Below the pieces are notes generated by a model. The model ran no database searches. It had not been told where the DNA came from and saw nothing but the letters and a program-made list of their open reading frames with translations. This document shows positions 38,717 to 63,332 of a stretch of DNA of 64,000 nucleotides, piece after piece. This DNA is from Escherichia coli (GTDB lineage: Bacteria > Pseudomonadota > Gammaproteobacteria > Enterobacterales > Enterobacteriaceae), in the NCBI RefSeq assembly GCF_044647545.1, contig NZ_CP172818.1, one strand, 5' to 3'. The position numbers and the translations under genes were made by a program. Numbering within the stretch: position 1 is the stretch's first letter; every line of letters begins with the position of its first letter.

Positions 38717-38810
38717 CCCGCAAGTGAAGAGATATTACCTTGATCTCATTTGTTTTTTGTTGTCTACTCTGAGAACGAACAAGGACATCCCCCATGAATA
38801 AACTCCCCGC

Positions 38811-39791
38811 TCACCTTTCGCGCCAAAACTGCAAAATTGCTTCTACAAACCTGTCAGAAATAATCCCTCGACGGGCTGCCGCGCTGAAATGACTGCTTCG
38901 CAGTGCCGTCGTCCAGTTCTCCGGTGACCGGTACGCTGAACCGTAATATCCCGTGCTTAAATCGTCCGGATCTTCATCAGGCGCGTTCGTCAGTCCTCTT
39001 GCACCTTGTTGCTGGAAGTCGACGAAAATAATATTGGCTAGAACATTATTTTGATAATTGCCATAAATAGCTTCATACGCATGAGGGAAATTTTCTTTCC
39101 AGTACCAGGTGGTATCGCCGCAAAACCACGGCGCGTCAGTAATTTTATTAAGCTGAGAATGGTATTGTTTTAGATCCCTACGAAAGGCGTCAACCATATG
39201 ATTAAAGTGTTGAGGGTGTGACGCGTAGTCACTGGTCATTAAGTCAAATTCGCCTTGCATCCAGCATACGCCGAGGAATTTGTTCTGCGGATTTTTTGCC
39301 AGTGCGGCTCGCGTTCTGCTGACTAAATCCTGGTATAGCGGAGTATCCGTTCCCCAACGACAAGCATCATGGCTGGCTCCGTGCCGTTCTGAATATGTCC
39401 CTTCGCTGCCCGCGGTAAAAGCCGATCCGCCACGGCAACACGGAACGATGAGAACCCCTGCATTATCAGGAATAAAGGGCAGTAATTTCCGTGCTATATG
39501 TAGTGCCTGGCCAACGGTGCCGTACTGTGTTTGATGATTCGTTGCCAGAGGATGGTGATAACCCTGCATATCCTGAACATCGTGTGGGCAGTGAGTCAGT
39601 GGAATAATGTCGTTAAAGTGACATGACGGGCCTCCGGGATGTGTATGCGCAAATCTCGCTAATTGTTTAATTCTGGGATGAGGCGCATCTTCCTTGTCCG
39701 GTAATGGTAGTCCTTCGCCATACGCCATGGCATTAGACTGACCAGCAACGGTAAGAACATAGTAATAATCGGGCGATATTATTGCGTTCAT
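38811..39791 (-). CDS. nanS: 9-O-acetyl-N-acetylneuraminate esterase
   Basis: 326 aa starting at MNAIISPDYYYVLTVAGQSNAMAYGEGLP (SGNH-like GQSN motif). The track ORF starts 9 codons upstream. Confidence 0.92.
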   Translation of the reverse strand: MNAIISPDYYYVLTVAGQSNAMAYGEGLPLPDKEDAPHPRIKQLARFAHTHPGGPSCHFNDIIPLTHCPHDVQDMQGYHHPLATNHQTQYGTVGQALHIARKLLPFIPDNAGVLIVPCCRGGSAFTAGSEGTYSERHGASHDACRWGTDTPLYQDLVSRTRAALAKNPQNKFLGVCWMQGEFDLMTSDYASHPQHFNHMVDAFRRDLKQYHSQLNKITDAPWFCGDTTWYWKENFPHAYEAIYGNYQNNVLANIIFVDFQQQGARGLTNAPDEDPDDLSTGYYGSAYRSPENWTTALRSSHFSAAARRGIISDRFVEAILQFWRER

Positions 39792-39855
39792 ATAATTTTC
39801 GCGTAATACAAATGACAAATTGATAGCAAGGCCCCTTTACCGGGGCCCTGAAGCG

Positions 39856-40962
39856 TTAGTTTTGTACTGTGACTTTATTATCCTTCACAGAAATTAAAAC
39901 TGAATCCGTCACCGCTTTGCCGCCTGCAGTTTCACCGCCAATAATTAATAAACTATTATTCCAGGGCAATGATACTCCGTAGGCCCGACCTTGCGATAAT
40001 TCGCCCGATTTATCCCATTTCCCGTTATGCCAAAGATGAATATCAGCGCTATATGATTTTTTCAGGCCTTCATGCGCATAGTTCTTACCGTTCTGGTAAT
40101 TTTCTCGTGAACCTTTGAATCCGGCCCCTCCGGCAAATATAAGTGAGTCATTGCTCATGCCTGCAAAACCGCCAGCGACGCCATCTGGTGATGCGACGGG
40201 AGCAAGCTTATTCCATTTTAAATTATTACCGGTGAAATCAAGTTCAAATACGGCATCCGTTCGCAATCCTGGTTTGGCTTCGCCATTAATAAGCCAGGTT
40301 TTATCACCTTTATTCACAACCGCCGCACCAGCCGTTCCGTACCAGGGAGATTCGCCAGCGTAACTCCATTGCTGTGTAGAGGGATCAAAAGACAACAGAA
40401 ACTTATTGAAGAAATAATCTTCTGCTTTTTTGTCAAAATAGTGGGCGTTGATTTTATCTATAGTGGTTGAATCTTTTCCAGCTTCGTTGAGATCTTCAAA
40501 ATAGCCATTGAAGATATTCTGGTTAACACCGCCAGTAACATAAGCCTTGCCGTTGTGTACAAAAGTCACATGGCCCGCCATGCCCATCGGCGCGTGCGAC
40601 ATCAATTTAACCCAGCTATTGGTTTTGGGGTTGTATTTGTGTACGTCATTAAATACCTGAGTCAAGCCCTCGCTGTTTTTGCCAATGCCGCCAAACACAT
40701 ACAGATTACCATCAATAAATGCAGAGGTTGCTTGATCTCTCGGTCCACCAGGGAATGCAGCTAACGCTGTCCATTTTTTATCTTTGGCCTGTGTATCCAG
40801 CTTGTACCATGCTGTACCTGCGCTACCTAAACCAATGTAGACAGTGTCGTTATCAATTGCTCCGGTACCACTTTTAAATGGCACAGGAGTTTCCGGTAAT
40901 ACAGACGCGTTTGCGGCAAATGAAGCCATTATGATAGCAAGCGCCGTTATTGTTTTATTCAT
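39856..40962 (-). CDS. nanM: N-acetylneuraminate mutarotase (Kelch-repeat beta-propeller), periplasmic
   Basis: 368 aa starting at MNKTITALAIIMASFAANA (signal peptide), with repeated ..G...lYvfGG.. Kelch units. Confidence 0.92.
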   Translation of the reverse strand: MNKTITALAIIMASFAANASVLPETPVPFKSGTGAIDNDTVYIGLGSAGTAWYKLDTQAKDKKWTALAAFPGGPRDQATSAFIDGNLYVFGGIGKNSEGLTQVFNDVHKYNPKTNSWVKLMSHAPMGMAGHVTFVHNGKAYVTGGVNQNIFNGYFEDLNEAGKDSTTIDKINAHYFDKKAEDYFFNKFLLSFDPSTQQWSYAGESPWYGTAGAAVVNKGDKTWLINGEAKPGLRTDAVFELDFTGNNLKWNKLAPVASPDGVAGGFAGMSNDSLIFAGGAGFKGSRENYQNGKNYAHEGLKKSYSADIHLWHNGKWDKSGELSQGRAYGVSLPWNNSLLIIGGETAGGKAVTDSVLISVKDNKVTVQN

Positions 40963-40981
40963 TGTGACTGTCTCCTGTCTA

Positions 40982-41698
40982 CTACAGTTTAAATGATACA
41001 CCAATGCGATAACTGTTTTCCGATAAATTATCTCTGCCGTTGTAAACACCCTGACGGTCAAGGTAGTCATATTCTATGTATGGCGTAATATCGGGCGTCA
41101 TATGGTATTGTAGAACAAATGCATTTTCCGTCGCCCATTTCTTATGGTTTGCATAGCGATAATCGTTCTGTTTGCTGTATAGCGTCGTTTGCCATGCGAA
41201 GGTGAAATCACTATTAATATGGTAAGTGACATATCCATCCCAACGATGAACGTTATCACGAGACATATCACCGGATAAGTCTTGTTGTCGGTAAGCTTTC
41301 CAGTCGTAACGATAGCGAATGCCAAAATTAAGATCTTTTGTCGCGTCCCAGGACAGTTTTACGTAGGGTCCGTAGCGGGTGCCGTTGCTGCTAAAATGCG
41401 TTAACATTCCCGGGCGCACCGTCCATTGATCATCAAGTTTAATCGCGTAATTAACTTCAACCTGAACATCATTGAGTGCGGCATTTTCCTTTTTATTATC
41501 ATGAATGGTATTCCAGGTATTACTTTCCATGCTTGCCCACCATCCATTTTGCCATCCCTCACTGACTTTGAGTCGAGTCTCATAGGCATGGCTTCCGCTA
41601 CGATATCCACCACGTACGTCCAGTGTCGCAGCCTGAGAAATTAATGGTGACGAAAAGCACAGTAATAATACGCCAGAAAGTATTTTAGCCTTTTTCAT
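40982..41698 (-). CDS. nanC: KdgM-family outer-membrane channel for N-acetylneuraminic acid
   Basis: 238 aa starting at MKKAKILSGVLLLCFSSPLISQA (signal peptide). The C-terminal ...YRIGVSFKL ends in an aromatic-type beta-barrel terminus. Confidence 0.92.
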   Translation of the reverse strand: MKKAKILSGVLLLCFSSPLISQAATLDVRGGYRSGSHAYETRLKVSEGWQNGWWASMESNTWNTIHDNKKENAALNDVQVEVNYAIKLDDQWTVRPGMLTHFSSNGTRYGPYVKLSWDATKDLNFGIRYRYDWKAYRQQDLSGDMSRDNVHRWDGYVTYHINSDFTFAWQTTLYSKQNDYRYANHKKWATENAFVLQYHMTPDITPYIEYDYLDRQGVYNGRDNLSENSYRIGVSFKL

Positions 41699-42114
41699 AA
41701 ATTTCACTCATTTGTAGGATACAGAAAGCAATACAAAGCCCGCATAAACAATTAGCATTTATGTTGTGTAATATTTTTTGCCAGGCTTATAGTGTCTTTG
41801 GCAATGGGTAGCTTATTTTATATTTTTTGTATAAGGTCTCCTGTGAAAATTCTCTTTTCACATTATTTAAATAAACAGAGAGCCAGATTAAATACCTGAG
41901 TATAAAATCTCTTCTGATGTTTAATTGATTTGAATGTTCGTAAGCTATATCACTTACTCAATCCATTTTACCCAGAGTCATAAAATAGAGTGTTTGTTGA
42001 TCTCATTTTCATATTCCTTTCAGACTGAAGTGCGTTTTCATCACCCGATGAGAAAGAACTGAAGTGATGTTTGCCATAGATTGCAAGATGCCCTGTCTCA
42101 TTGTCTATCGCGGT

Positions 42115-42136
42115 GCACCTTTATACCTGTTATACC
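42115..42136 (-). promoter_or_regulatory. NanR operator of the nanCMS promoter
   Basis: The reverse complement is GGTATAacaGGTATAaagGTgca, two full GGTATA repeats plus a degenerate third. It is part of an ~82-nt cassette about 80% identical to the yjhB promoter (5762-5843). Confidence 0.6.
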
Positions 42137-42890
42137 AGATCAAAAATCACGCAATCCATACAACAAAACCAGATTTGCAATTCGTGTCACAAAATATGTC
42201 GATCTTTTTCTAAGAGGAAGATGCCATGTGAAGCCAGACGAACACTTGCGGTGGTCTTCAAAAACTAAAGATATTCTTTTAAATATCTGTTTTATAAATA
42301 ATTTATTTAGAGTCTAAATAAGGGAAGCTTTGTAAGCTAACTCAGTGAGCTTGGTGAAAATAAGTGTTTACCCGCCATCAGGCTTAGCATAATTCTCATC
42401 ATGAAATATGTTTCCTGGTTTGTGGCTTGTAACTGGTCACTCCTGAAGCCGATCTGGAGAGGCTTGTTGATGTTGGTGTTTTCAGGGTGATGCCTCACTT
42501 AGTTTGTTTGCCGTATCGCCCGGCGAACAGCTGTGATTGAGGAAGGTTTAAGTCGTAGTGACCAAAGCCATATTTACCAACGGATGCAGATGAAAAAATC
42601 GTTTCCTGCTTTCCCCCATATCTCCATGATAAAAAGGAATGTAACAATCTCATGGTCTAAACTGACGAACCAGCCAGGAATAATCGCTAGGGACCTAAGA
42701 ATTAGCATGATAATAGCCACTAAGAAATTACTGCGTTCCATGAAATAGCCATTTTGTGGCAAATGGAGTTGACTAATAATGTCATATGTGAGACGGCTAG
42801 TTGAGCGAATATTAAATTTTGCTGAATTTTTTATGTTGATTTTACTTGTTACAGAACATATCACATGATATATAGATAATAAGAGAAGAC

Positions 42891-43540
42891 AGCGCCGGGG
42901 GCCCGCGGCGCCCGCTCCCAGCGCGGCGGGGGCGGGGGGGGGATATAAGGGAGCCTCGTCCCACACCAGCAAAGGGGACGCGGCTCGAGCCCAGCGGGAA
43001 GGGGCGCGGGGAACGTCCGAAGGCGTCATACGCGTAAAACAGCCAGCGCGCGCGATGCGCACATCCCACGTTCGTCCATTCCGCGCAGGACGTGACGACG
43101 CCGGCGTTGGCGGGTTACCGCGCGGCGGGCTGCGGGGCGTTGAGGAACGCCCATAATGGCGGGCGTGCGGCTCCAACGTTCGGCTCTGTTTGGGCTGGTG
43201 CGTACCGGGTTGAGAAGCGGGTAAGTGAACGCGTTGCCGTTTTACGGCAGTGAGAGCGAGTAGCGCCCGCGCGCGGGGGGGGCGGCGGGGCGCGGCCGGT
43301 GTCCCCGGCGCGGCGCGGGTTCGTGGAGGCCACGCGCCAGTGCGGGAGTGGGCCCGGCATGCGAACGGCCGCACTGGGGGCATTCAATGACGACCTTCTC
43401 GGTTCGTGGTGGAGAGGGGGGGACGGTGGGCAGGGCGGCGGGGCGCGGCCCGGCGGGGCCGCGCACCGGGGGGGGGGGGGGGGGGGGGGGGGCGCACCAC
43501 CCCGCGTGCTGCGGGGCAGCGGTGGGCGGCCCCTCTCTCG
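42891..43540. other. Anomalous G/C-only block 2: a degenerate, compressed, inverted IS1-like sequence replacing fimB through most of fimH
   Basis: There are exact inverted word matches to the IS1 copy in this window, in collinear order. 43026-43049 matches the reverse complement of 21085-21108 (24 nt). 43070-43080 matches 21043-21053. 43146-43158 matches 20936-20948. 43195-43215 matches 20865-20885 (21 nt). 43221-43230 matches 20849-20858. 43239-43257 matches 20818-20836 (19 nt). The spacing is compressed by about 20%. There is a G run at 43468-43492. All frames give P/G/R/A ORFs. Confidence 0.85.
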
Positions 43541-43545
43541 GGAAC

Positions 43546-43715
43546 AGTTGATGCGCAACGGTACGATTATTCCAGCGAATAACACGGTATCGTTAGGAGC
43601 AGTAGGGACTTCGGCGGTAAGTCTGGGATTAACGGCAAATTACGCACGTACCGGAGGGCAGGTGACTGCAGGGAATGTGCAATCGATTATTGGCGTGACT
43701 TTTGTTTATCAATAA
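43546..43715 (+). pseudogene. fimH: Last ~56 codons of the type 1 fimbrial adhesin gene fimH
   Basis: The translation ...RNGTIIPANNTVSLGAVGTSAVSLGLTANYARTGGQVTAGNVQSIIGVTFVYQ* is the FimH pilin-domain C-terminus. Everything upstream (fimB, fimE, fimA-G and the fimS switch) is absent. Confidence 0.85.
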
Positions 43716-43787
43716 AGAAATCACAGGGCATTGCTAATGCAGGTACGCAATATTACCTGAAGCTAAAAACCTGCACGTTAGCCCTTT

Positions 43788-43825
43788 GTAGGCCAGATAA
43801 GACGCGTCAGCGTCGCATCTGGCAT
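43788..43825. repeat. REP (repetitive extragenic palindrome) element
   Basis: The sequence is gtaggccagataagacgcgtcagcgtcgcatctggcat, a typical E. coli REP consensus. Confidence 0.7.
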
Positions 43826-43854
43826 AAACAAAGCGCACTTTGCGACAATCCGAA

Positions 43855-43879
43855 CAGAGCCCGCCATTGGCAGGCTCTG
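43855..43879. terminator. Hairpin between the convergent fimH and gntP
   Basis: The hairpin cagagcccgcc-att-ggcaggctctg is followed on the + strand by gtgttctttt. Confidence 0.45.
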
Positions 43880-43887
43880 GTGTTCTT

Positions 43888-45231
43888 TTACGCTACCATG
43901 CTAATAATCAACACAATAATCAGCCCAACCACGGAGTTGACCAGCTCCAGCAGTCCCCAGGTTTTCAACGTGTCTTTTACCGACAGGTCAAAGTAACCTT
44001 TGAACAGCCAGAATGAGGCATCATTAATGTGGGTGAGGGTGTTGGAACCCGCAGCCGTCGCCAGCACCAGCAGCGCCGGATTCACGCCAACCAGCTGACC
44101 GGTTGCTGGATCAAGGATTGCAGCACTGATAATCCCGGCGGCGGTCATCGCCGAAACGACACCCTGACCCGTCGCCAGACGAATTAGCACAGTGATCAGC
44201 CATGCCATAATGTAGGGCGAGATATTGCCGTGGGACATCAACATGCCGATGGTGTCGCCAATGCCGGTGTCGATGATAGTTTGCTTCAACACGCCACCCG
44301 CACCGATGATCAGAATCACCATTGCAATGCTTTTCACCGCACTTTCAAAAGCGTTCATCACCCACTGCATGTCATGACCACGTGCGGTGCCAAAGAGTAC
44401 GAATGCAACCACCATCGCAATAAACATTGCAATCGGCGAGGAACCGATAAAGTTAACCACTTCCCAGGCAGGGGTATCTTTTACCAGCCAGATATTGGCG
44501 ATGGTGGTGGAGATCATAATGATCGCCGGGATCAGCGGCACCAGAATCGAAACGCCGAAAGAGGGCAGATTGTTCATATCTACCGGTTGATCTGCTTTCA
44601 GGAATGATGGCGTTGGGCGCTCAAGATTGCCGAGGAACTTCGGCAGGATCAGACCTGCGCAGATTACACTTGGGATCGTCACCAGTACGCCATAGATATA
44701 AACCATCCCCATATCTGCGCCATAAGCATTCACCAGCGCCACAGGACCCGGCTGCGGTGGGAACAGTGAATGTGCGGTAGTGGCAGCTGCTACTGCCGGG
44801 ATCGCCAGTTTCAGGAACGGAATTTTAGCTTCGGCGGCAATGACAATAACCAGCGGCGCTAACATGATAAAGGCCACTTCATAGAACATCGCCAGACCAA
44901 AAATCAGGCCGATGATAATCACCGACAGCTGTACATAGCGCAGACCGAGACGCGCCAGCAGCGTATGTGCTATCTGGTGAGCCGCGCCGGAGTCGACCAT
45001 CAATTTACCGATGACCGCACCGAACACCACGATGATAGCCAGTTCCCCCAGCGTGTTGCCGAAGCCCGCTTTCATGGTGTGCAGCAGCGACATCAAATCC
45101 ATGCCCGCCAGCATCCCGACGGACAGCGCCGCCACCAACAAAGCCACCATTGAATTGATTTTGAACTTCAAATTCAGTACCAGCATCAGACCAATGCCGA
45201 ATACCACCCAGAGAATGTTAAGCACATGCAT
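43888..45231 (-). CDS. gntP: Fructuronate/gluconate:H+ symporter
   Basis: 447 aa, [32 protein letters not shown]... GntP family. Confidence 0.95.
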
Positions 45232-45284
45232 AACGTTTTACCTTACCTGGTTGAACCGTTGTTATTTTGGGCGACATGTTATGT

Positions 45285-45301
45285 AAATTGGTCAACCATT
45301 G
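45285..45301. promoter_or_regulatory. UxuR/ExuR-type operator palindrome (gntP side)
   Basis: The sequence is AAATTGGTcaACCATTg, with the core TTGGTnnACCA. Confidence 0.5.
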
Positions 45302-45393
45302 TTGCGATGAATGTCACATCCTCTGATCAATAACCATCGATTACCCTTTGCTGCAATTTGCAGCAACAACCAGGAGAGTGAAATTCTTGTGAT

Positions 45394-45410
45394 GTGGTTA
45401 ACCAATTTTA
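45394..45410. promoter_or_regulatory. UxuR/ExuR-type operator palindrome (uxuA side)
   Basis: The sequence is tgTGGTtaACCAATTTt, followed by ttgaca-like gggttgacatg. Confidence 0.5.
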
Positions 45411-45570
45411 GAATTCGGGTTGACATGTATTACCAAAAGGTAGAACTTATACGCCATCTCATCCGATGCAACGCCACGGCTGCGGTCTGGTTGTTCATCC
45501 GGATACCTAAACAACTCCAGGGTTCCGCGTCTCTTTGCTGTGGAACCCACTATGTGAAAGAGGAAAAATC

Positions 45571-46755
45571 ATGGAACAGACCTGGCGCTGGTACGGCCCA
45601 AACGATCCGGTTTCTTTAGCTGATGTCCGTCAGGCGGGCGCAACTGGCGTGGTTACCGCGCTGCACCATATCCCGAACGGCGAAGTATGGTCCGTTGAAG
45701 AGATCCTCAAACGCAAGGCGATCGTTGAAGACGCAGGCCTGGTATGGTCTGTCGTAGAAAGCGTGCCAATTCACGAAGATATCAAAACCCACACTGGCAA
45801 CTATGAGCAGTGGATCGCTAACTATCAGCAGACTCTGCGCAACCTGGCGCAGTGCGGCATTCGCACCGTGTGCTACAACTTCATGCCGGTGCTCGACTGG
45901 ACCCGTACTGACCTCGAATACGTGCTGCCAGACGGCTCCAAAGCTCTGCGCTTTGACCAGATCGAATTCGCTGCATTCGAAATGCATATCCTGAAACGTC
46001 CAGGCGCGGAAGCGGATTACACCGAAGAAGAAATTGCTCAGGCAGCTGTTCGCTTCGCCACTATGAGCGACGAAGACAAAGCGCGTCTGACCCGTAACAT
46101 CATTGCTGGTCTTCCGGGCGCGGAAGAAGGGTACACCCTCGACCAGTTCCGTAAGCACCTGGAGCTATATAAAGATATCGACAAAGCCAAACTGCGCGAA
46201 AACTTTGCCGTCTTCCTGAAAGCGATTATTCCGGTTGCCGAAGAAGTTGGCGTCCGTATGGCTGTTCACCCGGACGATCCGCCGCGCCCGATCCTCGGCC
46301 TGCCGCGCATTGTTTCCACCATTGAAGATATGCAGTGGATGGTTGATACCGTAAACAGCATGGCGAACGGTTTCACCATGTGCACCGGTTCCTACGGCGT
46401 GCGTGCTGACAACGATCTGGTTGATATGATCAAGCAGTTCGGTCCGCGTATTTACTTCACCCATCTGCGCTCCACCATGCGTGAAGATAACCCGAAAACC
46501 TTCCACGAAGCGGCGCACCTGAACGGTGACGTTGATATGTACGAAGTGGTGAAAGCGATTGTTGAAGAGGAACACCGTCGTAAAGCGGAAGGCAAAGAAG
46601 ACCTGATCCCGATGCGTCCGGACCACGGTCATCAGATGCTGGACGACCTGAAGAAGAAAACTAACCCAGGTTACTCCGCAATTGGTCGTCTGAAAGGCCT
46701 GGCCGAAGTTCGCGGTGTCGAACTGGCGATCCAGCGCGCTTTCTTTAGCCGTTAA
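45571..46755 (+). CDS. uxuA: D-mannonate dehydratase
   Basis: 394 aa starting at [43 protein letters not shown] gaggaaaaa. Confidence 0.95.
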
Positions 46756-46835
46756 TATCCACCGGCATGGCTGCGCGCCGTGCCGGTTCCTTCTTCCTTG
46801 CCGTCACTCTCTGAAGACGGATTCTGGAGTTTACG

Positions 46836-48296
46836 ATGACTACTATTGTTGACAGCAATCTGCCGGTTGCCCGCCCGTCATGGGTGCATTCTCGTCTGGA
46901 ATCACGCATTGTGCATCTCGGTTGCGGGGCGTTTCACCGCGCGCACCAGGCGCTGTATACCCATCATCTGCTGGAAAGTACCGACAGCGACTGGGGTATC
47001 TGCGAAGTTAACCTGATGCCAGGTAACGACCGTGTGCTGATTGAAAACCTGAAAAAACAGCAACTGCTGTACACCGTGGCGGAAAAAGGCGCGGAAAGCA
47101 CCGAACTGAAAATTATCGGTTCGATGAAAGAAGCGCTGCATCCGGAAATCGACGGCTGCGAAGGTATTCTCAACGCGATGGCGCGTCCGCAGACGGCGAT
47201 TGTCTCTCTGACGGTCACGGAAAAAGGCTACTGCGCTGATGCGGCAAGCGGTCAGTTGGATCTCAATAACCCGCTGATCAAGCACGATCTGGAAAACCCG
47301 ACTGCGCCGAAGTCTGCGATTGGTTACATCGTCGAAGCCCTGCGTCTGCGTCGTGAAAAAGGGCTGAAAGCGTTTACGGTGATGTCCTGCGATAACGTGC
47401 GTGAAAACGGTCATGTGGCGAAGGTCGCGGTACTGGGGCTGGCTCAGGCGCGTGACCCGCAGCTGGCGGCATGGATTGAAGAGAACGTCACCTTCCCGTG
47501 CACCATGGTTGACCGCATCGTTCCGGCGGCGACGCCAGAAACCTTACAGGAAATTGCTGACCAGCTGGGTGTTTATGACCCGTGCGCCATTGCCTGCGAA
47601 CCGTTCCGTCAGTGGGTGATTGAAGATAACTTCGTTAATGGTCGTCCGGACTGGGATAAAGTGGGCGCACAGTTCGTTGCAGACGTTGTGCCGTTCGAAA
47701 TGATGAAGCTGCGTATGCTGAACGGCAGCCACTCTTTCCTGGCATACCTCGGTTACCTCGGCGGCTATGAAACTATTGCCGACACCATGACTAACCCGGA
47801 TTATCGCAAAGCGGCCTTTGCCCTGATGATGCAGGAACAAGCGCCAACGCTGTCGATGCCGGAAGGTACGGACCTGAACGCCTATGCGACGCTGCTGATC
47901 GAGCGTTTCAGCAACCCGTCTCTGCGTCACCGTACCTGGCAGATTGCGATGGACGGCAGCCAGAAGTTACCGCAGCGTCTGCTGGATCCGGTGCGTCTGC
48001 ACCTGCAAAACGGCGGCAGCTGGCGTCACCTGGCGCTGGGCGTGGCTGGCTGGATGCGTTACACCCAGGGCGTGGATGAGCAGGGTAATGCCATTGACGT
48101 GGTCGACCCGATGCTGGCCGAGTTCCAGAAGATTAACGCGCAGTATCAGGGCGCAGACCGCGTGAAAGCGCTGCTGGGCCTGAGCGGTATTTTTGCCGAT
48201 GATCTGCCGCAGAATGCCGACTTTGTTGGCGCGGTGACGGCGGCATATCAGCAGCTGTGCGAACGCGGTGCGCGCGAGTGTGTGGCTGCGCTGTAA
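46836..48296 (+). CDS. uxuB: D-mannonate (fructuronate) oxidoreductase
   Basis: 486 aa. Mannitol dehydrogenase family, with N-terminal IVHLGCGAFHRAHQA. Confidence 0.95.
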   Translation: MTTIVDSNLPVARPSWVHSRLESRIVHLGCGAFHRAHQALYTHHLLESTDSDWGICEVNLMPGNDRVLIENLKKQQLLYTVAEKGAESTELKIIGSMKEALHPEIDGCEGILNAMARPQTAIVSLTVTEKGYCADAASGQLDLNNPLIKHDLENPTAPKSAIGYIVEALRLRREKGLKAFTVMSCDNVRENGHVAKVAVLGLAQARDPQLAAWIEENVTFPCTMVDRIVPAATPETLQEIADQLGVYDPCAIACEPFRQWVIEDNFVNGRPDWDKVGAQFVADVVPFEMMKLRMLNGSHSFLAYLGYLGGYETIADTMTNPDYRKAAFALMMQEQAPTLSMPEGTDLNAYATLLIERFSNPSLRHRTWQIAMDGSQKLPQRLLDPVRLHLQNGGSWRHLALGVAGWMRYTQGVDEQGNAIDVVDPMLAEFQKINAQYQGADRVKALLGLSGIFADDLPQNADFVGAVTAAYQQLCERGARECVAAL

Positions 48297-48336
48297 CTAA
48301 CTGATTACCCTACAGACTTACTGGTCAATCAAACTG

Positions 48337-48356
48337 ATATTTGGTTGACCAGTTTT
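48337..48356. promoter_or_regulatory. UxuR/ExuR-type operator-like palindrome upstream of uxuR
   Basis: The sequence is atATTTGGTtgACCAgtttt. Confidence 0.4.
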
Positions 48357-48439
48357 CGTTTTTTTGCCCACCTGTACGTGCCAACTTCCAGTGCTAATGG
48401 TATAGTTTGAGATTAACGGGTGCCGTAAAATTGCCCGTT

Positions 48440-48474
48440 GTAGGCCGGATAAGGCGTTCACGCCGCATCCGGCA
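48440..48474. repeat. REP element
   Basis: The sequence is gtaggccggataaggcgttcacgccgcatccggca. Confidence 0.75.
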
Positions 48475-48510
48475 AAAATTTGATTAACCGCACCTAACGG
48501 ACACAACACC

Positions 48511-49284
48511 ATGAAATCTGCCACCTCTGCGCAAAGACCTTACCAGGAAGTCGGGGCGATGATCCGCGATCTGATCATAAAGACGCCGTACAATCCTGGC
48601 GAACGGTTGCCGCCGGAGCGTGAAATTGCAGAAATGCTTGATGTCACGCGGACGGTGGTACGTGAAGCGCTGATCATGCTGGAGATCAAAGGGCTGGTGG
48701 AAGTGCGCCGGGGTGCCGGTATCTATGTTCTTGATAGCTCAGGCAGCCACAACACAGACAGTCCGGATGCCAACGTTTGCAATGATGCGGGTCCTTTTGA
48801 GCTGTTGCAGGCGCGACAGCTTCTTGAGAGCAACATCGCCGAGTTTGCCGCCCTGCAGGCTACCCGCGAAGATATCGTCAAAATGCGTCAGGCATTGCAA
48901 CTGGAAGAGCGTGAACTGGCTTCCAGTGCGCCGGGCAGCAGCGAAAGCGGTGACATGCAGTTCCATCTCGCTATTGCCGAAGCAACGCATAACAGCATGC
49001 TGGTGGAGCTGTTCCGTCAGTCCTGGCAGTGGCGGGAAAACAATCCAATGTGGATCCAGTTGCACAGCCATCTGGATGACAGCCTGTATCGCAAAGAGTG
49101 GTTGGGCGATCACAAACAGATCCTCGCCGCGTTAATCAAAAAAGATGCCCGAGCGGCGAAGCTGGCAATGTGGCAGCATCTGGAAAACGTTAAGCAACGT
49201 CTGCTGGAATTCTCGAACGTTGACGATATTTATTTTGATGGCTATCTGTTTGATTCATGGCCGCTGGATAAAGTCGACGCCTGA
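48511..49284 (+). CDS. uxuR: GntR/FadR-family repressor of hexuronate genes
   Basis: 257 aa with the wHTH ..ERLPPEREIAEMLDVTRTVVREALIMLEIKGLVEVRRGAGIYV.. and an FCD domain. Confidence 0.95.
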   Translation: MKSATSAQRPYQEVGAMIRDLIIKTPYNPGERLPPEREIAEMLDVTRTVVREALIMLEIKGLVEVRRGAGIYVLDSSGSHNTDSPDANVCNDAGPFELLQARQLLESNIAEFAALQATREDIVKMRQALQLEERELASSAPGSSESGDMQFHLAIAEATHNSMLVELFRQSWQWRENNPMWIQLHSHLDDSLYRKEWLGDHKQILAALIKKDARAAKLAMWQHLENVKQRLLEFSNVDDIYFDGYLFDSWPLDKVDA

Positions 49285-49296
49285 CTTATTATAATA

Positions 49297-49325
49297 AGCG
49301 CAAGGGTAAACGTTCCTTGCGCTTT
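49297..49325. terminator. Bidirectional hairpin terminator between uxuR and yjiC
   Basis: The hairpin aagcgcaagg-gtaaacgtt-ccttgcgctt is flanked by T-rich and A-rich runs. Confidence 0.6.
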
Positions 49326-49424
49326 CTTAAATTAAGAAGTCGCAATGAGTATTACTTTGTAAATTGCAGGGGATTGTTTAGCTATCTGTATAACCTGAAT
49401 GTTAGTACTCATTCTTCCTGGTAG

Positions 49425-50099
49425 TTATTTACCAATATAATTCCATTCACCATTTTTTAATTCAAACAGTTCTGGAAGAGATGACGGTTGCAGAGTCATA
49501 CGTTTGAGTGGTGCATTTTCATCACCGGGATAGGCTTCTATACCAATTATTGGGTCATTACCCAACTCAATATTAGCATTAAGTAATGCGGCAAGGGCGA
49601 ATCCGGAAGAATTTGCTACCCCTGTTACCGTCATTATCTGATCAATATAGATATCAATCCTTGGCTGCTCATTGGTCCATCTTTTTGCCTGAGAAGCTGG
49701 AAGGGTTGAAATATATCCTATCGTGGTTCCGGCATAACCAGGAACATTGCAACCAGGGCCTAATGTTATTTCATGAACTGTATAGTCCTCAACAGGATCG
49801 AAAGGGCCTTTCATAAATAAATTTAGCCGTAATCCTTTTGCTAACTCTGTGGCAGCATGCGCCTTTTTACATATACCACCATATATTTCGTCTAAAGCTG
49901 AGGTGATTTTCAAGTTTCGATAGAGCATACGTCCTGTTGTTGTAATACCATTGAATTCTCTGCATGTTTCTGTCACATAATTAAATGGCCAGGACTCTTT
50001 ACTAATATCAAGTTTTCTAATTTCGACAACGCTTTTTCTATCGTAATTATGGTTATTGCCACGAGCAAGAGGCGGAAGATAGATATTTTCCGTATCCAT
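49425..50099 (-). CDS. yjiC: Uncharacterised protein (AT-rich gene)
   Basis: 224-aa ORF, MDTENIYLPPLARGNNHNYDRKSVVEIRKLDISKESWPFNY... An in-frame upstream extension (MSMPLSNALQS*IITDNHFLHHPKVDSELTRKHERAR) is interrupted by TAA at 50175-50177, so the true start is uncertain. Confidence 0.7.
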   Translation of the reverse strand: MDTENIYLPPLARGNNHNYDRKSVVEIRKLDISKESWPFNYVTETCREFNGITTTGRMLYRNLKITSALDEIYGGICKKAHAATELAKGLRLNLFMKGPFDPVEDYTVHEITLGPGCNVPGYAGTTIGYISTLPASQAKRWTNEQPRIDIYIDQIMTVTGVANSSGFALAALLNANIELGNDPIIGIEAYPGDENAPLKRMTLQPSSLPELFELKNGEWNYIGK

Positions 50100-50881
50100 G
50101 CGTGCACGTTCATGTTTACGTGTTAACTCACTGTCGACTTTTGGATGATGAAGGAAGTGATTATCTGTAATAATTTAACTCTGAAGGGCATTGCTTAATG
50201 GCATAGACATAATAGTTACCTTTATGAGTATTTCACTGATGCTTAGAAAAATAGATAAATTTTTCTGTAGTAAAAAGAGAAGTAAACAAATGACATGCAT
50301 GTTTCTGTTGTAGTGATATCAACTCTACACAGTGATATTAAATGGTGGGAAACACTCTAAAGTATCAAAAAACGCTCATTTAAAATTATTTGCATGCAAT
50401 TTAAAAGCATATCTTATTACTAATTGGAATTTGATGTTGCTATATTGATGTCTATATTAATAATGCCTGTGAATGGTATTTTTGATGTATTTGATATGTT
50501 ATCAATTTATATTATTTACAAACTAATTGTTTTAAATAATACATAGCTGATTATGCGGAAATAAATAATTTCCCACCGGAATTAAGTAGCGGTGGTGACA
50601 AGTATTTTCATCTACGTAACTATTCGGAATATTCAGAATATACTAGCGGTTTTTTTTTGAGTTTGATGATTTTTATCAAATCATGACTTTTTTCCTGAAA
50701 AGTCAGTAGATATTCATAGGCAAGTAAGGTTTTATACTTTGCTGACAGGATTCAGGCCTGTCTCAGACTGACATGGATGTAATGAACAAAAGGGAATGGC
50801 TATGGAAAATGAGCATCAATACAGTGGTGCCCGGTGTTCAGGGCAAGCCGCATATGTTGCTAAACGTCAGGAGTGCGCAAA

Positions 50882-51274
50882 ATGATGCGCCAATCACGTC
50901 AGGCTGTTTTACCTGAAATTTCAGGCAATAAAACGTCATCGCTGCGTAAATCAATATGTAGCGATCTCCTCACTCTTTTTAATTCTCCTCATTCGGCATT
51001 ACCGTCATTACTTGTTTCAGGCATGCCCGAGTGGCAAGTGCATAACCAGAGCGACAAACATCTCCAGAGCTGGTATTGCCGTCAGCTGCGTTCTGCACTG
51101 TTATTTCATGAGCCACGGATTGCGGCGTTGCAGGTCAATCTGAAAGAAGCGTACAGCCACACGCTGGCGATCAGCCTTGAGATAATGCTGTACCACGACG
51201 ATGAACCGCTAACGTTTGATCTGGTCTGGGATAATGGCGGTTGGCGTAGTGCGACGCTCGAGAATGTCAGCTAA
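50882..51274 (+). CDS. iraD: Anti-adaptor protein IraD (stabilises RpoS after DNA damage)
   Basis: 130 aa starting at [54 protein letters not shown]/gp25-like fold family. Confidence 0.88.
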
Positions 51275-52178
51275 GTACAATCTCCAGCTCGCGCAGTTCA
51301 CGCCAGAAGCGTTCGGCAACTGGATTCATGCGGGTATTCATTCGGTATGCATAGGCCTGAATCGGGATCACCAGTTCGTCCCGATTCAGTACAACGAGCT
51401 GCCCGCTGCGAATTTCTTGTTGGATGGCGTACTCCGGCAGCCAGGCAATCCCACAGCCGTCGAGGGCAACCTGCTTTAAAAGCTCGCTCATCGAAGAGAC
51501 AAAAAAGGTGCTGAAACTTAACTCACTGTGGCGCGTCAGGGTGCGATTAATCAATCGCCCCATGTAGGAGTTGCGGCTGTAATTCAGTAACGGAAAGTGT
51601 GGCTGCGCGAGGTTAAAAAGTGCTTCTCCGTGTTCGTCACTGGCGCAGACAGGGAACAATTGAGATTCAAATAAGCGAATGTGGTCAAACGGCGCTTCCA
51701 GCAAATCTTCGTCGTGAAAGGAAAAAATACAGTCACTTTGCCCTTCACGCAGTTTATCGACCGCTTCATCGACATCAATAGCTTCAATTGCCCAGGTAAA
51801 GAGCGGCGGCATCTGGCTGATAATGGACGGTAACAGCCCGAGGGAAAGAGAGTGTGCAGCGGCTATTTTAATTTTGCGTTGCGCGTAATCGCTGCCACCA
51901 CGGAGTTCTGCAAGGTTGCTCTCTAACTGTTGCAACAGATGGCGGATCTGCGAATGGAATATTTTACCTTGTTCCGAGAGTTGCAGCGGCGTCACCTGGC
52001 GGTTAAACAATTCAACGCCAATCGCCTGTTCCAGCGCACGGATGCGGCGGCTGAATGCCGGTTGCGAGACGTTGCGACTGACTGCTGCCTGGGAAAAATT
52101 GCGGCATTTTTCCAGGGTCAGAAAATCATAAAGCCATTTAGTTTCAATATTATGCAAAACCGCACCACAGTCATCCAT
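51267..52178 (-). CDS. hypT: LysR-family hypochlorite-responsive regulator
   Basis: 303 aa with the HTH ..[26 protein letters not shown].. Its 3' end overlaps the iraD 3' end by 8 bp (convergent genes). Confidence 0.92.
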
Positions 52179-52242
52179 TACGTTTTACTCTGTCAGCCGC
52201 CCTTGCGGGCATTCTACGTCCATTCGGGCGGCTGACAACCGT

Positions 52243-53415
52243 TTATGCCGTTTCAAACGTTCCTTTCACGCAGGCTTTGCCGTCTTTGACCATCAGCTTG
52301 CCGCGAGCGTATACCTGCTCAATGCGTAATTCTGGCGTCATGACCAGTAAGTCTGCGTCATTGCCTGGCAGAATTTCGCCTTTCCCGCTCAGGTTAAGGA
52401 AACCGGCTACGCTACTGGTGAGCGGGCGCAGGGCATCGCTGATACTGAAATCATAATCTTTGACCAGCACCTGCACGGTTTCCAGCAACGTTTCAAAACC
52501 GGCAACACCGATATGGGTTAAATTCCCTTCGTCATCGAAGAACGGCTGGCTACCGTTGCCGTCGGAGCTGAGGGTGACGCGTGCCAGCGGAATACCCGCC
52601 TGAACGGCGCGGGCAATACCTTCGGCAGGGGCGACTGGTTCGTCAATGCTGCTGGTGATATCGATGGTGCCGCCTTTGCGCGCGAACTCCAGCGCCTGCT
52701 CAAACAACGGAACGTTGCGGTTAACGTGGGTCGGCAGCAACTTGCTAATCGGCACATCGCAGTTTTCCAGCAGGTCATAGACAGGCTGTAACGCCTTTTT
52801 GCTGTCGCCCATGTGGAACACGGTGACGCCAGGTTTACCGCCGAGCAAACCGCCAACGCGGGATTCCGCCGCCATATTAGCCAGGTGATAAACGTCCGGT
52901 GCGGCAGAACGGTGATCAGAGATGGCGCATTTCACGCCAATCACGCGATCGATAATCGCCACGTCTTTTTCCACGGAACCCGTAATAGTGCGGGAAGGGA
53001 CATGATAAGCGCCGGTCAGCATCCAGGCGCTGATGCCTTCTTCATTGAGCGCACGGGTCTTGGCGAGCAGGGATTCCGGGTGGCGAGAGATAGAGTCGGT
53101 GCCCAGCAGACCAACCACTGACGTGACGCCTGCTTCCGTCAGACGACTTAACGCCACTTCCGGCGTGCGCGTCGTGGGACCTGCTTCGCCGCCACCGCCA
53201 ATCAAATGGACGTGTTGATCAATAAAACCTGGGCAGAGGATCTGCCCGCTGAGATCGACAACCGTGCAGTCCGGTACAATGTCAGAAGGGATATTACTGG
53301 CAACGGCGATAATTTTGCCGTTAGCGACGAGGACATCGCAAATTCCCCGATCTTCCGGCGCATACAAATGCGCTCCCTGCAGCAGGGTAAAACCGGCTGC
53401 GGTATAATCAATCAT
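52243..53415 (-). CDS. iadA: Isoaspartyl dipeptidase (amidohydrolase superfamily)
   Basis: 390 aa with the metal motif GFIDQHVHLIGGGGE. Confidence 0.95.
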   Translation of the reverse strand: MIDYTAAGFTLLQGAHLYAPEDRGICDVLVANGKIIAVASNIPSDIVPDCTVVDLSGQILCPGFIDQHVHLIGGGGEAGPTTRTPEVALSRLTEAGVTSVVGLLGTDSISRHPESLLAKTRALNEEGISAWMLTGAYHVPSRTITGSVEKDVAIIDRVIGVKCAISDHRSAAPDVYHLANMAAESRVGGLLGGKPGVTVFHMGDSKKALQPVYDLLENCDVPISKLLPTHVNRNVPLFEQALEFARKGGTIDITSSIDEPVAPAEGIARAVQAGIPLARVTLSSDGNGSQPFFDDEGNLTHIGVAGFETLLETVQVLVKDYDFSISDALRPLTSSVAGFLNLSGKGEILPGNDADLLVMTPELRIEQVYARGKLMVKDGKACVKGTFETA

Positions 53416-53427
53416 GGTAACTCCTTG

Positions 53428-53889
53428 TTAAACAATAAGCTGCATAACCCAGATCGACAGCAATGCGTTAATCACGCAGACCGTAATGATATGCGGGTAA
53501 TATTTGGCATTCACTTCGGCTGTCCCCAGGCAGCGACCGACATTTTGCACCGGGTTGCCCATTAAATACATCGCGGGCAGTAAAACGGTGACATCGTGAC
53601 CGGTTAATGCGCCAGCGGTTGCCAGACTGGCGGCAACACCGACTGCGCCGCCCATACTCATTAATGCGGCTAAAAGGACGGTTGCCGCTTCACCGGGTAA
53701 TCCCCACAGCGCCATTACGGGTTCACAGATATGCCCCACCCAGTCGAGCAGGCCGGTAATTTTCAGCGCCTGAATGATGACAAACGCCATCACCACGTTT
53801 GGCAGCAGGTTGGTCGTGGCGATAGTAAAGCCACGGCGCGCACCATCGATAAACATATCCATGACGTTTTTGCGGACCTGAGTTGTCAT
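53428..53889 (-). CDS. yjiG: Inner-membrane protein with a nucleoside-recognition (Gate/SpmB-like) domain
   Basis: 153 aa and hydrophobic. It overlaps yjiH by 4 nt. Confidence 0.88.
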   Translation of the reverse strand: MTTQVRKNVMDMFIDGARRGFTIATTNLLPNVVMAFVIIQALKITGLLDWVGHICEPVMALWGLPGEAATVLLAALMSMGGAVGVAASLATAGALTGHDVTVLLPAMYLMGNPVQNVGRCLGTAEVNAKYYPHIITVCVINALLSIWVMQLIV

Positions 53890-54569
53890 GCTTGCGCTCC
53901 TTGCGTTGGGTTGCGACGTTCTTCGAAGTTAAGCCAGACGCGCAAAATGTTGGCTCCGACAAATTTAAACACCAGGATGACTGCTAAAGGTACGATTACG
54001 GACGTGCCCAGAAAGGCAAACACCGCGACGCCGGAAGAGAAGTAGTTGGTGATAATGGCGCTACCACTGGTTTGATATGCGGCGAAAATCACTTTATCGC
54101 GTTCGGTAATTTCACCTTCCTGCGCCAGCTCTTTGGTCATACCTGCGGCGGCATCGGTGTTTTGCAGGTTAGCGATCAGCGCCAGCGAGCAGATCCCTGG
54201 AATGCCCAACAACGGTTTTAGCACTGGCGTCATTAACTGCTGCGCGGCGCGTAATCCGCCAAGACCATCGGTAATTGAAATAATCCCCAGAGAGAGAATG
54301 ACTGACGGTGCCAGCTCCAGCGCAAAGAGAAAGCCATCTTTAGCCCCCGCGCCACCCGCGCCGCGAAACGAGGTGGTGGCTCCGTTCGCACCAGGCAGTT
54401 GCCCAAACGATCCGTTCAGAACGGAAAAATCAAAAACGCGCCACCAACTGTCTGTCCCGGAAAAAACACCGGAAAAAAAGATTATGGTGAGAAAAAAAGC
54501 CAGATACCCTTTAATGCCCACTTTTTCTGTCGCCAGCTCCCCGGCTACAGCATCCCCTTGTTGTGTCAT
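53886..54569 (-). CDS. yjiH: Inner-membrane protein with a nucleoside-recognition (Gate/SpmA-like) domain
   Basis: 227 aa starting at MTQQGDAVAGELATEKVGIKGYLAFFLTIIFF. The track ORF starts 4 codons earlier. Confidence 0.88.
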   Translation of the reverse strand: MTQQGDAVAGELATEKVGIKGYLAFFLTIIFFSGVFSGTDSWWRVFDFSVLNGSFGQLPGANGATTSFRGAGGAGAKDGFLFALELAPSVILSLGIISITDGLGGLRAAQQLMTPVLKPLLGIPGICSLALIANLQNTDAAAGMTKELAQEGEITERDKVIFAAYQTSGSAIITNYFSSGVAVFAFLGTSVIVPLAVILVFKFVGANILRVWLNFEERRNPTQGAQA

Positions 54570-54818
54570 AACAATCCCCATTGTTTTTTTGTGTTTGTGT
54601 GTTGCTTGAGCCAGGAAAATTCCTGGAGCTGAAAAACCTTATCAGCCATGTGGGTATGGGGAAAATGCAAGTATGTTTCTGACTATGCGTTTTTTGCATA
54701 GCGGTAAAATTACGCTGTGTGGAAAAGGTTCTACGCAGGATTGAGTTGCAGAAAATTCATAAACCCAGTGACAATGACATAGTAAATAAAAAACAGATAA
54801 TCCAGGGACGAAAACGCG

Positions 54819-55373
54819 ATGGCAAAGTACAACGAAAAAGAGCTGGCGGATACGAGCAAGTTTTTAAGTTTTGTCCTCCGACACAAACCGGAGGCGATTG
54901 GTATCGTACTGGACCGTGAAGGATGGGCGGATATCGATAAGCTCATACTTTGTGCCCAAAAAGCGGGCAAGCGGTTAACCCGTGCATTGCGGGATACTGT
55001 GGTTGCCACCAGCGATAAAAAGCGTTTTAGTTATTCCAGTGATGGTAGGTGCATCCGCGCGGTTCAGGGGCATTCGACTTCGCAGGTCGCTATTTCCTTT
55101 GCCGAAAAAACACCGCCACAGTTTCTCTACCACGGTACGGCAAGCCGTTTCCTTGACGAGATAAAAAAACAGGGGCTGATTGCAGGTGAGCGTCACTACG
55201 TACATCTCTCTGCTGATGAAGCAACGGCACGCAAAGTGGGAGCAAGACACGGATCGCCGGTTATTTTAACCGTCAAAGCACAGGAAATGGCGAAACGAGG
55301 CCTCCCTTTCTGGCAAGCGGAAAACGGGGTCTGGCTGACATCAACGGTTGCGGTTGAGTTTCTTGAGTGGTAA
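54819..55373 (+). CDS. kptA: RNA 2'-phosphotransferase (Tpt1/KptA)
   Basis: 184 aa, [42 protein letters not shown]...VQGHS...HGT...YVHLS. These are the conserved Tpt1 R-H-R-R motifs. Confidence 0.93.
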
Positions 55374-55385
55374 GGGAAACTTCCC

Positions 55386-56564
55386 TCATGAAGTGACCAC
55401 TTGTAGCTTAAATAATTGCACTGTGCTGATAAGCGCAGCAATAAACAACGCCGCCGCGCCGCAGAGAGTGGCGCTGGCAAGCGCCGATGTTCCATTGCCG
55501 AGCATACTGGTCAGCGCCGGGCCGAGGATTTGCCCAATGCCGTAAATGAGCGTCACAAAGCCTAAAAGATTGAGATTTCCCGGTACGCTCAGTTGGCGGG
55601 CGATAGTCATCACCAGAGATGTCGTGCCCATAAAGGTACCGCCAAAACCAAGACTGCTGATGATAAGCAAGAGAGGCGAGTCGCTGGCGAGAGTAAGCAG
55701 CACACAGATAGCCTGCACCAGCAAATTCGCCGTCAGGCAGGGCAAAGCCCCCCAACGTTTTGCTGCCCATAGCCAGCCAAAGCAACCAGGCACAATTGAT
55801 AAGCCGACTAACGTCCAGAGATGGGCGGTTAACAATGGTGAGCCTGCATCTTTCGCCATGAGCGGCAGGTAAGTCGCGACGATGATATAACCAAATCCCG
55901 CCAGGCCGTACAGAATAGCCAGTAACCACCAGCTCATTATCTGTTGCTCCGTTTTTGCCAATGGCATTGGTGTGATGGCGTGTTTTTTCGAGGGCATTAA
56001 AAGCGTAAGTGCAATCAGCATCATGCCAGAAAGCGCCCCGGCGCCTTGCCATAACGTTTGCGAGGAGAGGTCAAAATGCAGGCCTGCCAGAACATATTCA
56101 TTGCCCAGTGCGATGCCAATGCCAACGCCAGAAAACAAAGCTGCCAGCACAAAAGGATGGCGCGTGTGCTGCATAATCAGCGTCGAACCAAAAATCAGCA
56201 TACCGGCGCTGGCGACACCCGCCAGGACGCGAATCAATAACACCAGAATAAATGGCGGCAACCATGCCATTGCGAGGATCAACAACCCGCTCGCCAGGGC
56301 AGAAGCCAACAGAAATGGGCGCAGGCGCGATGGCTGGTGAAATGCGCCAAAAGAAAATAGCAGACTGCCAGCCAGATACCCCGCATAGTTGCCGCTGGCA
56401 ATCCACGAGAGCTGGCTAAATGAAAACGATCCTTCCGCCATCATGACGGGCAACATAGGCGTATAAAGGAAGCGGCCTAAACCCATACCTAAGGTCAGAA
56501 CCAGCATCCCGAAAAGCGCGGTGCTGAAAGAAAAGCGTTCTACGGGATGCGTGGACGAAGGCAT
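55386..56564 (-). CDS. yjiJ: MFS-like membrane protein (YbfB/YjiJ, DUF1228)
   Basis: 392 aa, 12 TM-type. Confidence 0.88.
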
Positions 56565-56631
56565 GTTTAACCTTGTTTGTCATTTTTGTTGTTAACAAGT
56601 TAATAACAAAAAGGTGAAGCATGCCAGCCTG

Positions 56632-58584
<1,953 letters not shown>

Positions 58585-58587
58585 TCC

Positions 58588-59739: not shown

Positions 59740-59854
59740 GATTTTCCTTCCCCGTACCACGGGAGATAATGAAAAGAGGCCACATTATTACCATTCTTTT
59801 AGTATGGTTTATTTGATCTCTCTCGCGGTTAGCCACTTAGTTTTTCATGGATTT

Positions 59855-61135
59855 CTAAAAATTGCCGAGGGGGAACAAGGCCGGGAGCTGCGACAGCAAA
59901 TATAAAATTAGCCCAATACAACCGCCAACCAGCGTACCGTTGACACGAATAAACTGCAGATCTTTGCCGATATTTAACTCTATTTGCCGCGACATATCCC
60001 GCGCATCCCAGCTTTTTACCGTATCGCTGATGTGGCGCGTCAGGAATGCGGAAAACTCAGGCGCGACGCGGTGCGCGGCTTGTTCAAGATGACCATTTAA
60101 CGACGCCCGCAAGGCATCATCGGCAATTAACGTTTCGCCAAACCATTGACCCGCTCGTGCGATGCGTTCTTTCACACGAGAATCTTCACTGTTGATATCC
60201 ACTTTCAGCCATTCCCGTAAATCCCCCCACAATTCACTGAGATAGCGATTAAAAGCTTCATCTTCTTTCAGATAGCTTTTTACGGCATCGGCTCGCGCTG
60301 CCATTTCCGGATCGTTTTTCAGCTTGTCGATCAGGGCGAAGGTGGCGCGATCAAACGCATGGCGGATCTGATGCGCACGATCGCGACTAATATCATCAAG
60401 CAAAGAATTCACCGCGTCAGAAACCAACTCCGCGCTATGTTCGCCCAACCATTCGGTGGGGAGAATTTTGGCTTTCAGTGGATGCTCGCTCTCCAGCCAG
60501 CGAACAATTTGCTGGGCGATAAACTTGCGCGATTTATCGCGCTGGAGAAGGGCGATCAACTGTGCGATCAGCGTATCCAGCAGCACCTGATGACGATCGT
60601 TTTTGGTCATACTCTCCAGCATCAACGCACTGGTGCCGGAAAGATCGACCTTATCAATCGCCCGATGGACCGCGCGCTTAAGCAGGCGCTGAATACGCGC
60701 ATCATCGGTAAGTTCGAGAAAACCGCTCATGATCTGCAACAGATGCTGACCAACGCGGCGGGCGTTTTCTGGCTGGCTAAACCAGTTGCCAATCAGCAAC
60801 GCCGGTTCGTGGCGTCGAATCAATGCCACCAGGGATTGAGTATCAAGAAATTTTTCCTGCACGAACTGGCCGAGATTTTCGCCAATCCGGTCTTTATTAC
60901 GCGGGATAATCGCCGTATGGCGAGAAATGATCGGAATCGGCACGCGGCGAAACAGCGCCACCACCGCAAACCAGTCCGCCAGCGCGCCGACCATCGCCGC
61001 TTCAGCAATCGCCTTCACGCCGCTCACCCAAAAATTGGGCGGCAAAAACAGCGTAACGACAAAGGTAGCAGCGGCGATAAGCAGTAAAGAGAGCGCCAAC
61101 ATTTTGGCGCGTCTGAGTTCAATGAGTTTATTCAT
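59855..61135 (-). CDS. yjiN: DUF445-family membrane protein
   Basis: 426 aa with N- and C-terminal TM segments. Confidence 0.88.
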
Positions 61136-62377: not shown

Positions 62378-63194
<817 letters not shown>

Positions 63195-63291: not shown

Positions 63292-63297
63292 AATGTC

Positions 63298-63327: not shown

Positions 63328-63332
63328 CAAAA

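Follow-up and report, generated by a model that had tools for sequence, protein, structure and literature searches.

A GC-rich block at the fim locus of an Escherichia coli genome record is very probably a technically corrupted IS1A within a known Δfim::IS1A allele

Canonical IS1 (IS1A) is 768 bp long, has 23-bp inverted repeats and carries insA/insB' with a programmed frameshift. The element is associated with deletions in the type 1 fimbrial (fim) locus of Escherichia coli. The K-12 strain MC4100 has an IS1-associated deletion that inactivates type 1 fimbriation, and its genotype Δ(fimB-fimE)632(::IS1) is on record (PMC3431244). A different allele has been reported in which a partial 171-bp match to fimH lies between gntP and nanC and is split by an IS1-family element; carriers of this fimH remnant are EAEC and EAHEC strains, ST648 and one ETEC strain (PMC8281228). 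In EAEC 042, nanC and an intergenic region are followed by an IS1A with a minus-strand transposase and then by a 171-bp partial fimbrial gene and gntP; the paper describing the 042 genome does not mention the fim deletion (PMC2808357).

We analysed a window of 64,000 nucleotides from an E. coli genome (contig NZ_CP172818.1). An earlier note on this DNA had described a GC-rich block in place of most of the fim locus and had taken it for a degenerate, badly reconstructed copy of IS1.

The fim deletion and its relatives in other genomes

From left to right, the fim region of the window is made up of the following features:

40982–41698, minus strand: nanC, the intact left neighbour, taken from the list of open reading frames and collinear with the nanC annotation in 042, WP4 and K-12
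41699–42879, no strand: the retained part of the nanC–fimB intergenic region, which in reference genomes continues for a further 9 bp (GATTAGTTG) that are lost in the window
42880–43544: the GC-rich block, whose parts are given below
43545–43715, plus strand: the 3' remnant of fimH, 171 bp (56 codons and the stop), with a translation that ends in NVQSIIGVTFVYQ before the stop and equals the C-terminus of K-12 FimH
43888–45231, minus strand: gntP, the intact right neighbour, a 447-aa open reading frame annotated as gntP in the references

The 9 bp lost from the left flank are also present in K-12, and the 171-bp sequence collinear with the fimH remnant is annotated as a partial fimbrial protein in both 042 and WP4. 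Compared with K-12 MG1655, the window lacks about 8.85 kb: the gap opens 263 bp upstream of the fimB start and closes where the last 171 bp of fimH begin. The deletion removed fimB, fimE, fimS, fimA, fimI, fimC, fimD, fimF, fimG and 732 bp of fimH, in agreement with the earlier note, which had recognised both the last 56 codons of fimH and the absence of the rest of the locus, including fimS and both recombinases. With both recombinase genes (fimB and fimE), the fimS switch and every structural and assembly gene deleted, no type 1 fimbriae can be formed, and the strain should be type 1 fimbriae-negative.

We compared positions 42000–44500 with the complete E. coli genomes (n = 5,426). Many of these have flanks 99.9% identical to the query with an annotated IS1 between them, and in these genomes the span is 112 bp longer than in the window. 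At the position of the block, 042 has the 9 bp GATTAGTTG followed by a 767-bp IS1A, as against 665 nt in the window. The flanks are 99–100% identical to those of 042, with one mismatch in 38808–42879. Agreement is closer still with WP4-S18-ESBL-09, which has a clean IS1A between the same flanks: 38808–42879 is 100% identical with no mismatch, and the 18.8 kb at 43545–62381 are 99.98% identical, with one mismatch and two single-base gaps. A query that included 290 bp of each flank, at a coverage of at least 80%, found the clean Δfim::IS1A junction in 307 of the 5,426 complete genomes.

We assigned the window to this published allele because the left breakpoint, the right breakpoint and the type and orientation of the element all agree. 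The left breakpoint of the window agrees with that of the Δfim::IS1 allele of 042, EAHEC and ST648, give or take the 9 lost bp; to the right of the second breakpoint, exactly 171 bp of fimH survive in each; and the element is of the IS1A type in the same orientation, between flanks 99.9–100% identical to those of the window. The fim deletion is real and already known, and its association with IS1, proposed in the earlier note, is borne out by the 307 genomes with a clean IS1A at the same breakpoints and by the published remnant (PMC8281228). Unlike the 042-type allele, the window has 665 nt of GC-rich garble where 9 + 767 clean bases are expected, and it pairs the allele with a K-12-like KpLE2 island on its left. 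The earlier note had offered MC4100 as an example. Its genotype is genuine, but the deletion is a different and smaller one: by its name it covers fimB–fimE, in a laboratory K-12 lineage, whereas the window lacks about 8.85 kb, from fimB into fimH, of which 732 bp are gone, and carries an allele that is widespread in natural isolates.

The 9-mers flanking IS1 in the clean genomes differ (GATTAGTTG on one side, CAGTTGATG on the other). A deletion derivative is expected to lack the 9-bp target-site duplication, and its absence here fits two routes by which the allele may have arisen: two IS1 copies may have recombined, or one may have caused an adjacent deletion. In the source genome, the nanC–fimB intergenic region is joined to the last 171 bp of fimH by one IS1A, whose transposase is encoded on the minus strand.

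The Δfim::IS1A allele has near-identical flanks in strains that are assigned to different phylogroups in PMC8281228, and here the allele stands beside a K-12-like island. This suggests that the allele spread by homologous recombination instead of originating repeatedly.

Compared with WP4-S18-ESBL-09, the window lacks a single C at 43843 and another at 49525, one of them within the spacer between fimH and gntP, the other where a frameshifted DUF2686 pseudogene is annotated. Each shortens a brief run of C (CC to C and CCC to CC) and could be a natural variant or a homopolymer-length error.

The GC-rich block and its IS1A template

The block occupies 42880–43544 (665 nt) and has sharp borders and a G+C content of 75%, compared with 51% for the window; in 100-nt windows its G+C content ranges from 61 to 88%. 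The skew reported earlier for 42891–43540 was reproduced (G 298, C 192, A 83, T 77), as was the 25-nt G run at 43468–43492. The limits proposed for the block, about 42890 and about 43543, needed revision. Identity to the reference genomes ends at 42879/42880 and is regained at 43545; the block has swallowed the 9 bp of unique left flank, GATTAGTTG.

Six exact words (24, 11, 13, 21, 10 and 19 nt) are collinear with the reverse complement of the IS1 copy at 20669–21436 in the same window, all of them as listed in the earlier note. The distance from the first to the last word is 213 nt in the block and 272 nt in IS1, a ratio of 0.78 that matches the shortening of about 20% described there. The block and IS1 have 47 10-mers in common, whereas 500 shuffles gave a mean of 0.8 and a maximum of 7. 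The earlier note had also proposed aligning the block to the window's own IS1 and to IS1A, and this alignment was significant, with a local score of 121 for IS1A and 15.6 ± 1.8 for shuffled sequences.

The block is a derivative of IS1A. While the earlier note was correct in calling it an IS1 copy, the element with which it had compared the block was not the closest one: the global score was 163 for IS1A and 82 for the window's own copy, which is an IS1F. The unambiguous sites that distinguish IS1A from IS1F are IS1A-like in the block (TCCGAAG, GCGCGAT, TTCCGCG and GAGAAGCGG). Because the diagnostic sites and the scores both favour IS1A, the block derives from the IS1A native to the fim site and not from the copy 22 kb away. 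We therefore rejected the possibility that the block was copied from the window's IS1F, since the block follows IS1A where the two elements differ.

Numbering IS1A from the nanC side, we divided the block into three parts:

42880–42936, minus strand: corrupted left part, 57 nt where the true sequence has about 200 nt, made up of 9 bp of flank and IS1A 1–191, by alignment to 042
42937–43273, minus strand: corrupted alignable core, equivalent to IS1A 192–642, 337 nt for 451 nt (local alignment score 349)
43274–43544, no strand: G-rich filler including the 25-nt G run, 271 nt in place of about 125 nt of IS1A, with no detectable template

The core is oriented as in 042, where the minus strand, opposite to fimH, encodes the transposase. 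In its alignment to the IS1A of 042, the core retained 95% of the G, 72% of the C, 59% of the A and 52% of the T. Nearly all errors in the core are deletions; substitutions number only 7 and insertions 9, and 8 of the inserted bases are G. G/C filler is limited to the two ends of the block, which are compressed or padded. The earlier description of A and T as replaced by G and C does not apply to the core, in which T and A were deleted.

The block is collinear with canonical IS1A in its core, but it has neither the inverted repeats, nor a transposase frame, nor the expected length. It measures 665 nt and not the approximately 768 bp of a functional IS1; many single-base deletions destroy the insA/insB' frames; and a search allowing up to 5 mismatches found no IS1 terminal inverted repeat in it, the copy at 20669–21436 being the only one with both. 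The IS1 transposase Pfam domain was absent from all four open reading frames scanned across the block, in which the fimH tail was the sole domain. We attribute the failure of the block to look like a functional IS1, in length, inverted repeats and frames, to corruption and not to biology.

The sequence of the block was found in none of the public collections searched. None of the 5,426 complete E. coli genomes covered it, and its rightmost 282 nt (43263–43544) had no match in them even at E ≤ 0.01 in distant mode. A 40-mer of the block was absent from public genome and metagenome contigs, and neither of the block-spanning open reading frames of 269 and 138 aa is on record.

Other garbled blocks and the clean remainder of the window

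A scan of the whole window for similar blocks found two more, which we call block 1 and block 3, with the fim block as block 2:

2213–2815, plus strand: block 1, C-rich, a corrupted IS2 with a core at 2344–2782 equivalent to IS2 335–1095 (local score 199, shuffles 44 ± 5.4)
62382–63340, no strand: block 3, lying between yjiA and the 5' end of mdtM, 69% G, with G runs as long as 116 nt

Block 1 lies at the junction between a truncated intB and a phosphoethanolamine-transferase fragment, beside the tRNA-Leu gene leuX. It kept 94% of the C, 65% of the G, 50% of the A and 6% of the T of IS2, with 93% of the T lost, and its core has only 5 substitutions in 761 positions. T makes up only 4% of the block, and C occurs in runs of 11 and 14 nt. 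CB209 and WP4 match the flanks at 100% identity, with only 16 bp between them, and these 16 bp are lost in the window. The alignable cores of blocks 1 and 2 are 25–42% shorter than their templates.

At the right edge of block 3 (63206–63340), the sequence returns gradually to the 3' end of mrr through single-base deletions, mostly of T and A. No convincing template for block 3 was found among IS1A, IS1B, IS2, IS3, IS4, IS5 and IS30, nor in the mrr region, the reference mdtM–yjiA interval or other comparison loci. A T-to-G mismatch is present at 62378, 4 bp ahead of the block.

The rest of the window is clean. Positions 2816–42879 form one 40-kb alignment to K-12, and the 34.5 kb at 4300–38800 show only 54 differences from K-12 MG1655, all natural-looking; polymorphism of this kind is all that separates 2816–38807 from K-12. 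The leuX island at 2816–38850 (KpLE2-like, with IS4, IS30, fec, yjh and sgc genes) is almost identical to that of K-12 MG1655, and the IS1F, IS4 and IS30 copies at K-12 positions in the window are intact. The first of these is the copy used for comparison above:

20669–21436, plus strand: full-length, uncorrupted IS1F at its K-12 position next to fecI, with both inverted repeats, 91.8% identical to IS1A

The 91-aa insA of this IS1F is intact and its insB is divided by an internal stop into open reading frames of 97 and 69 aa, a structure from which the copy is probably not autonomous.

Two GC-rich stretches in the fec region, 14641–14740 and 17931–18400, were considered as further sites of corruption and rejected; they align cleanly to 042 and K-12 and are natural. 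The sequence switches from K-12-like to ST648/042-like at 38808–38850, at the nanS stop codon, and to the right of this point it is 100% ST648/042-like. With a query spanning the switch, none of the 5,426 complete genomes had the combination of K-12-like island and ST648-like flank at more than 99.0% identity. We rejected a chimeric or generated K-12/ST648 mosaic, since the leuX island naturally borders the core genome at the nanS stop codon.

Origin of the corruption and its consequences

We consider it very probable, at about 0.93, that the source genome carries the known Δfim::IS1A allele and that the GC-rich block is a technical corruption of its IS1A. The grounds are that the flanks match genomes with an intact IS1A, the deletions are base-specific, the corruption recurs within the window and the sequence is absent from the public collections searched. 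One kind of base-specific deletion spectrum appears at two unrelated elements 40 kb apart, with G favoured in IS1A and C favoured in IS2. At the fim site, bases were dropped with base-specific probabilities (T > A > C >> G) and the ends padded with filler rich in G/C homopolymers while the adjoining unique DNA stayed intact, and the same corruption struck the IS2 copy at 2213–2815 and the third stretch at 62382–63340. The data show the allele, the derivation of the block from IS1A, its error spectrum and its recurrence in the window, and from these the technical cause is inferred. The earlier note had likewise preferred poor reconstruction to natural decay, a view strengthened by the 100% identical flanks, the base-specific deletions and the two additional blocks.

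As for the step at which this happened, a failure of consensus or gap filling at multi-copy insertion sequences during assembly appears the most likely cause, and we would give it roughly even odds among technical origins. It is favoured because two of the three blocks correspond to insertion sequence types that are usually multi-copy, and insertion sequences that are apparently low-copy are clean. The clean IS4, IS30 and IS1F fit damage restricted to multi-copy elements only if they are low-copy in the source genome. Counting against this explanation, the corruption is not strictly confined to repeats: 9–16 bp of unique left flank were lost at blocks 1 and 2, and at block 3, which is tied to no insertion sequence, about 130 bp of mrr are affected.

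More tentatively, the artefact may have come from computation after assembly, such as a lossy reconstruction, masking or a generative step, and not from sequencing or assembly itself. We kept this origin in consideration because the error profile is odd, the borders are sharp and the corruption spills slightly into unique flank. The very sharp borders beside perfect flanks speak for it, and deletions nearly free of substitutions that favour a single base in each block (G in block 2 and C in block 1), together with homopolymer filler, look more like degenerate model output than like the errors of any sequencing platform known to us. Fidelity in blocks 1 and 2 peaks in the middle and not at the edges, and the absence of the block from the public collections searched is also in its favour. 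On the other hand, two of the three blocks lie on insertion sequence types that are usually multi-copy, as repeat-related trouble in assembly predicts, and the gradual recovery at the right edge of block 3, with single-base deletions of the homopolymer type, resembles a gradient of read quality. The switch between K-12-like and ST648-like sequence at a natural island boundary also makes the window look like a real genome.

A sequencing artefact of a familiar kind was considered as well. Two-colour Illumina chemistry calls G in dark cycles and leaves poly-G junk in draft assemblies, and such dark-cycle artefacts are substitutions that leave the length unchanged. The blocks resemble this junk in their long G/C homopolymers and in the G/C-rich filler beside perfect sequence, but differ from it in their deletions. 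We rejected a two-colour dark-channel model (T to G and A to C at the same length), as substitutions are rare and the alignable cores fall far short of their templates in length. To our knowledge, the nearly substitution-free, base-specific deletion pattern is unlike the usual error profile of any sequencing platform.

It is very improbable that the block is real DNA, namely an IS1A relic decayed or hypermutated in the cell through removal of T and A, addition of G runs and deletion of the inverted repeats. Such a relic would account for a block that is derived from IS1A and sits exactly at the IS1A site, and sequence alone gives no proof of unreality. However, the flanks differ from genomes with an intact IS1A at 0 positions in 4 kb on the left and 3 in 18.8 kb on the right, and with flanks so nearly identical there has been no evolutionary time for the element to lose about 30% or more of its sequence. 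Substitutions are almost lacking among the changes, which are base-specific deletions, and spontaneous mutation in E. coli is biased from GC to AT, opposite to the direction of the block. A relic at fim would also leave the same signature in an unrelated IS2 and in a third block to be accounted for, a 116-nt G run would replicate very unstably, and the block sequence is in none of the public collections searched. We know of no mutational process that combines base-specific deletion and homopolymer filler with untouched flanks.

We give still less credence to the idea that all three blocks are physically present in the DNA of the strain through an unknown localised process acting on insertion sequences. 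Under such a process, T and A would be deleted often and G (or C on the opposite strand) spared, and long runs of G would be added without any effect on the unique DNA alongside. A foreign high-GC insert unrelated to IS1, in or in place of the fim region, is refuted by the IS1A alignment statistics, for although a 75% G+C block in a 51% G+C genome with a rightmost 282 nt that lack any match in E. coli might suggest one, 337 nt are collinear with IS1A 192–642 with 95% of the G positions kept, the breakpoints are exactly those of the IS1A allele, the open reading frames have no Pfam domain except the fimH tail, and homopolymer runs take the place of coding structure.

Technical corruption of the native IS1A therefore remains our reading of the block. 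The GC-rich "degenerate IS1" is not a real feature, and the biology beneath it is already known. The record contains at least three stretches of 0.6–1 kb that are fabricated or garbled, which should be flagged as a problem of data quality. Gene callers would yield spurious GC-rich open reading frames, for example of 269 and 156 aa across the fim block, and insertion sequence typing, fimH typing and repeat analyses based on the record would give misleading results. Similar damage may affect the other copies of IS1A and IS2 in the source genome.

A much smaller irregularity was seen in the yjgR–ahr interval, where 78 bp of WP4-S18-ESBL-09 are represented by 5 nt at 268–278 of the window (context GGGAAAGGGGCG), and one more base is missing at 278. 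Either a natural indel or a minor instance of the corruption seen in the three blocks could account for this.
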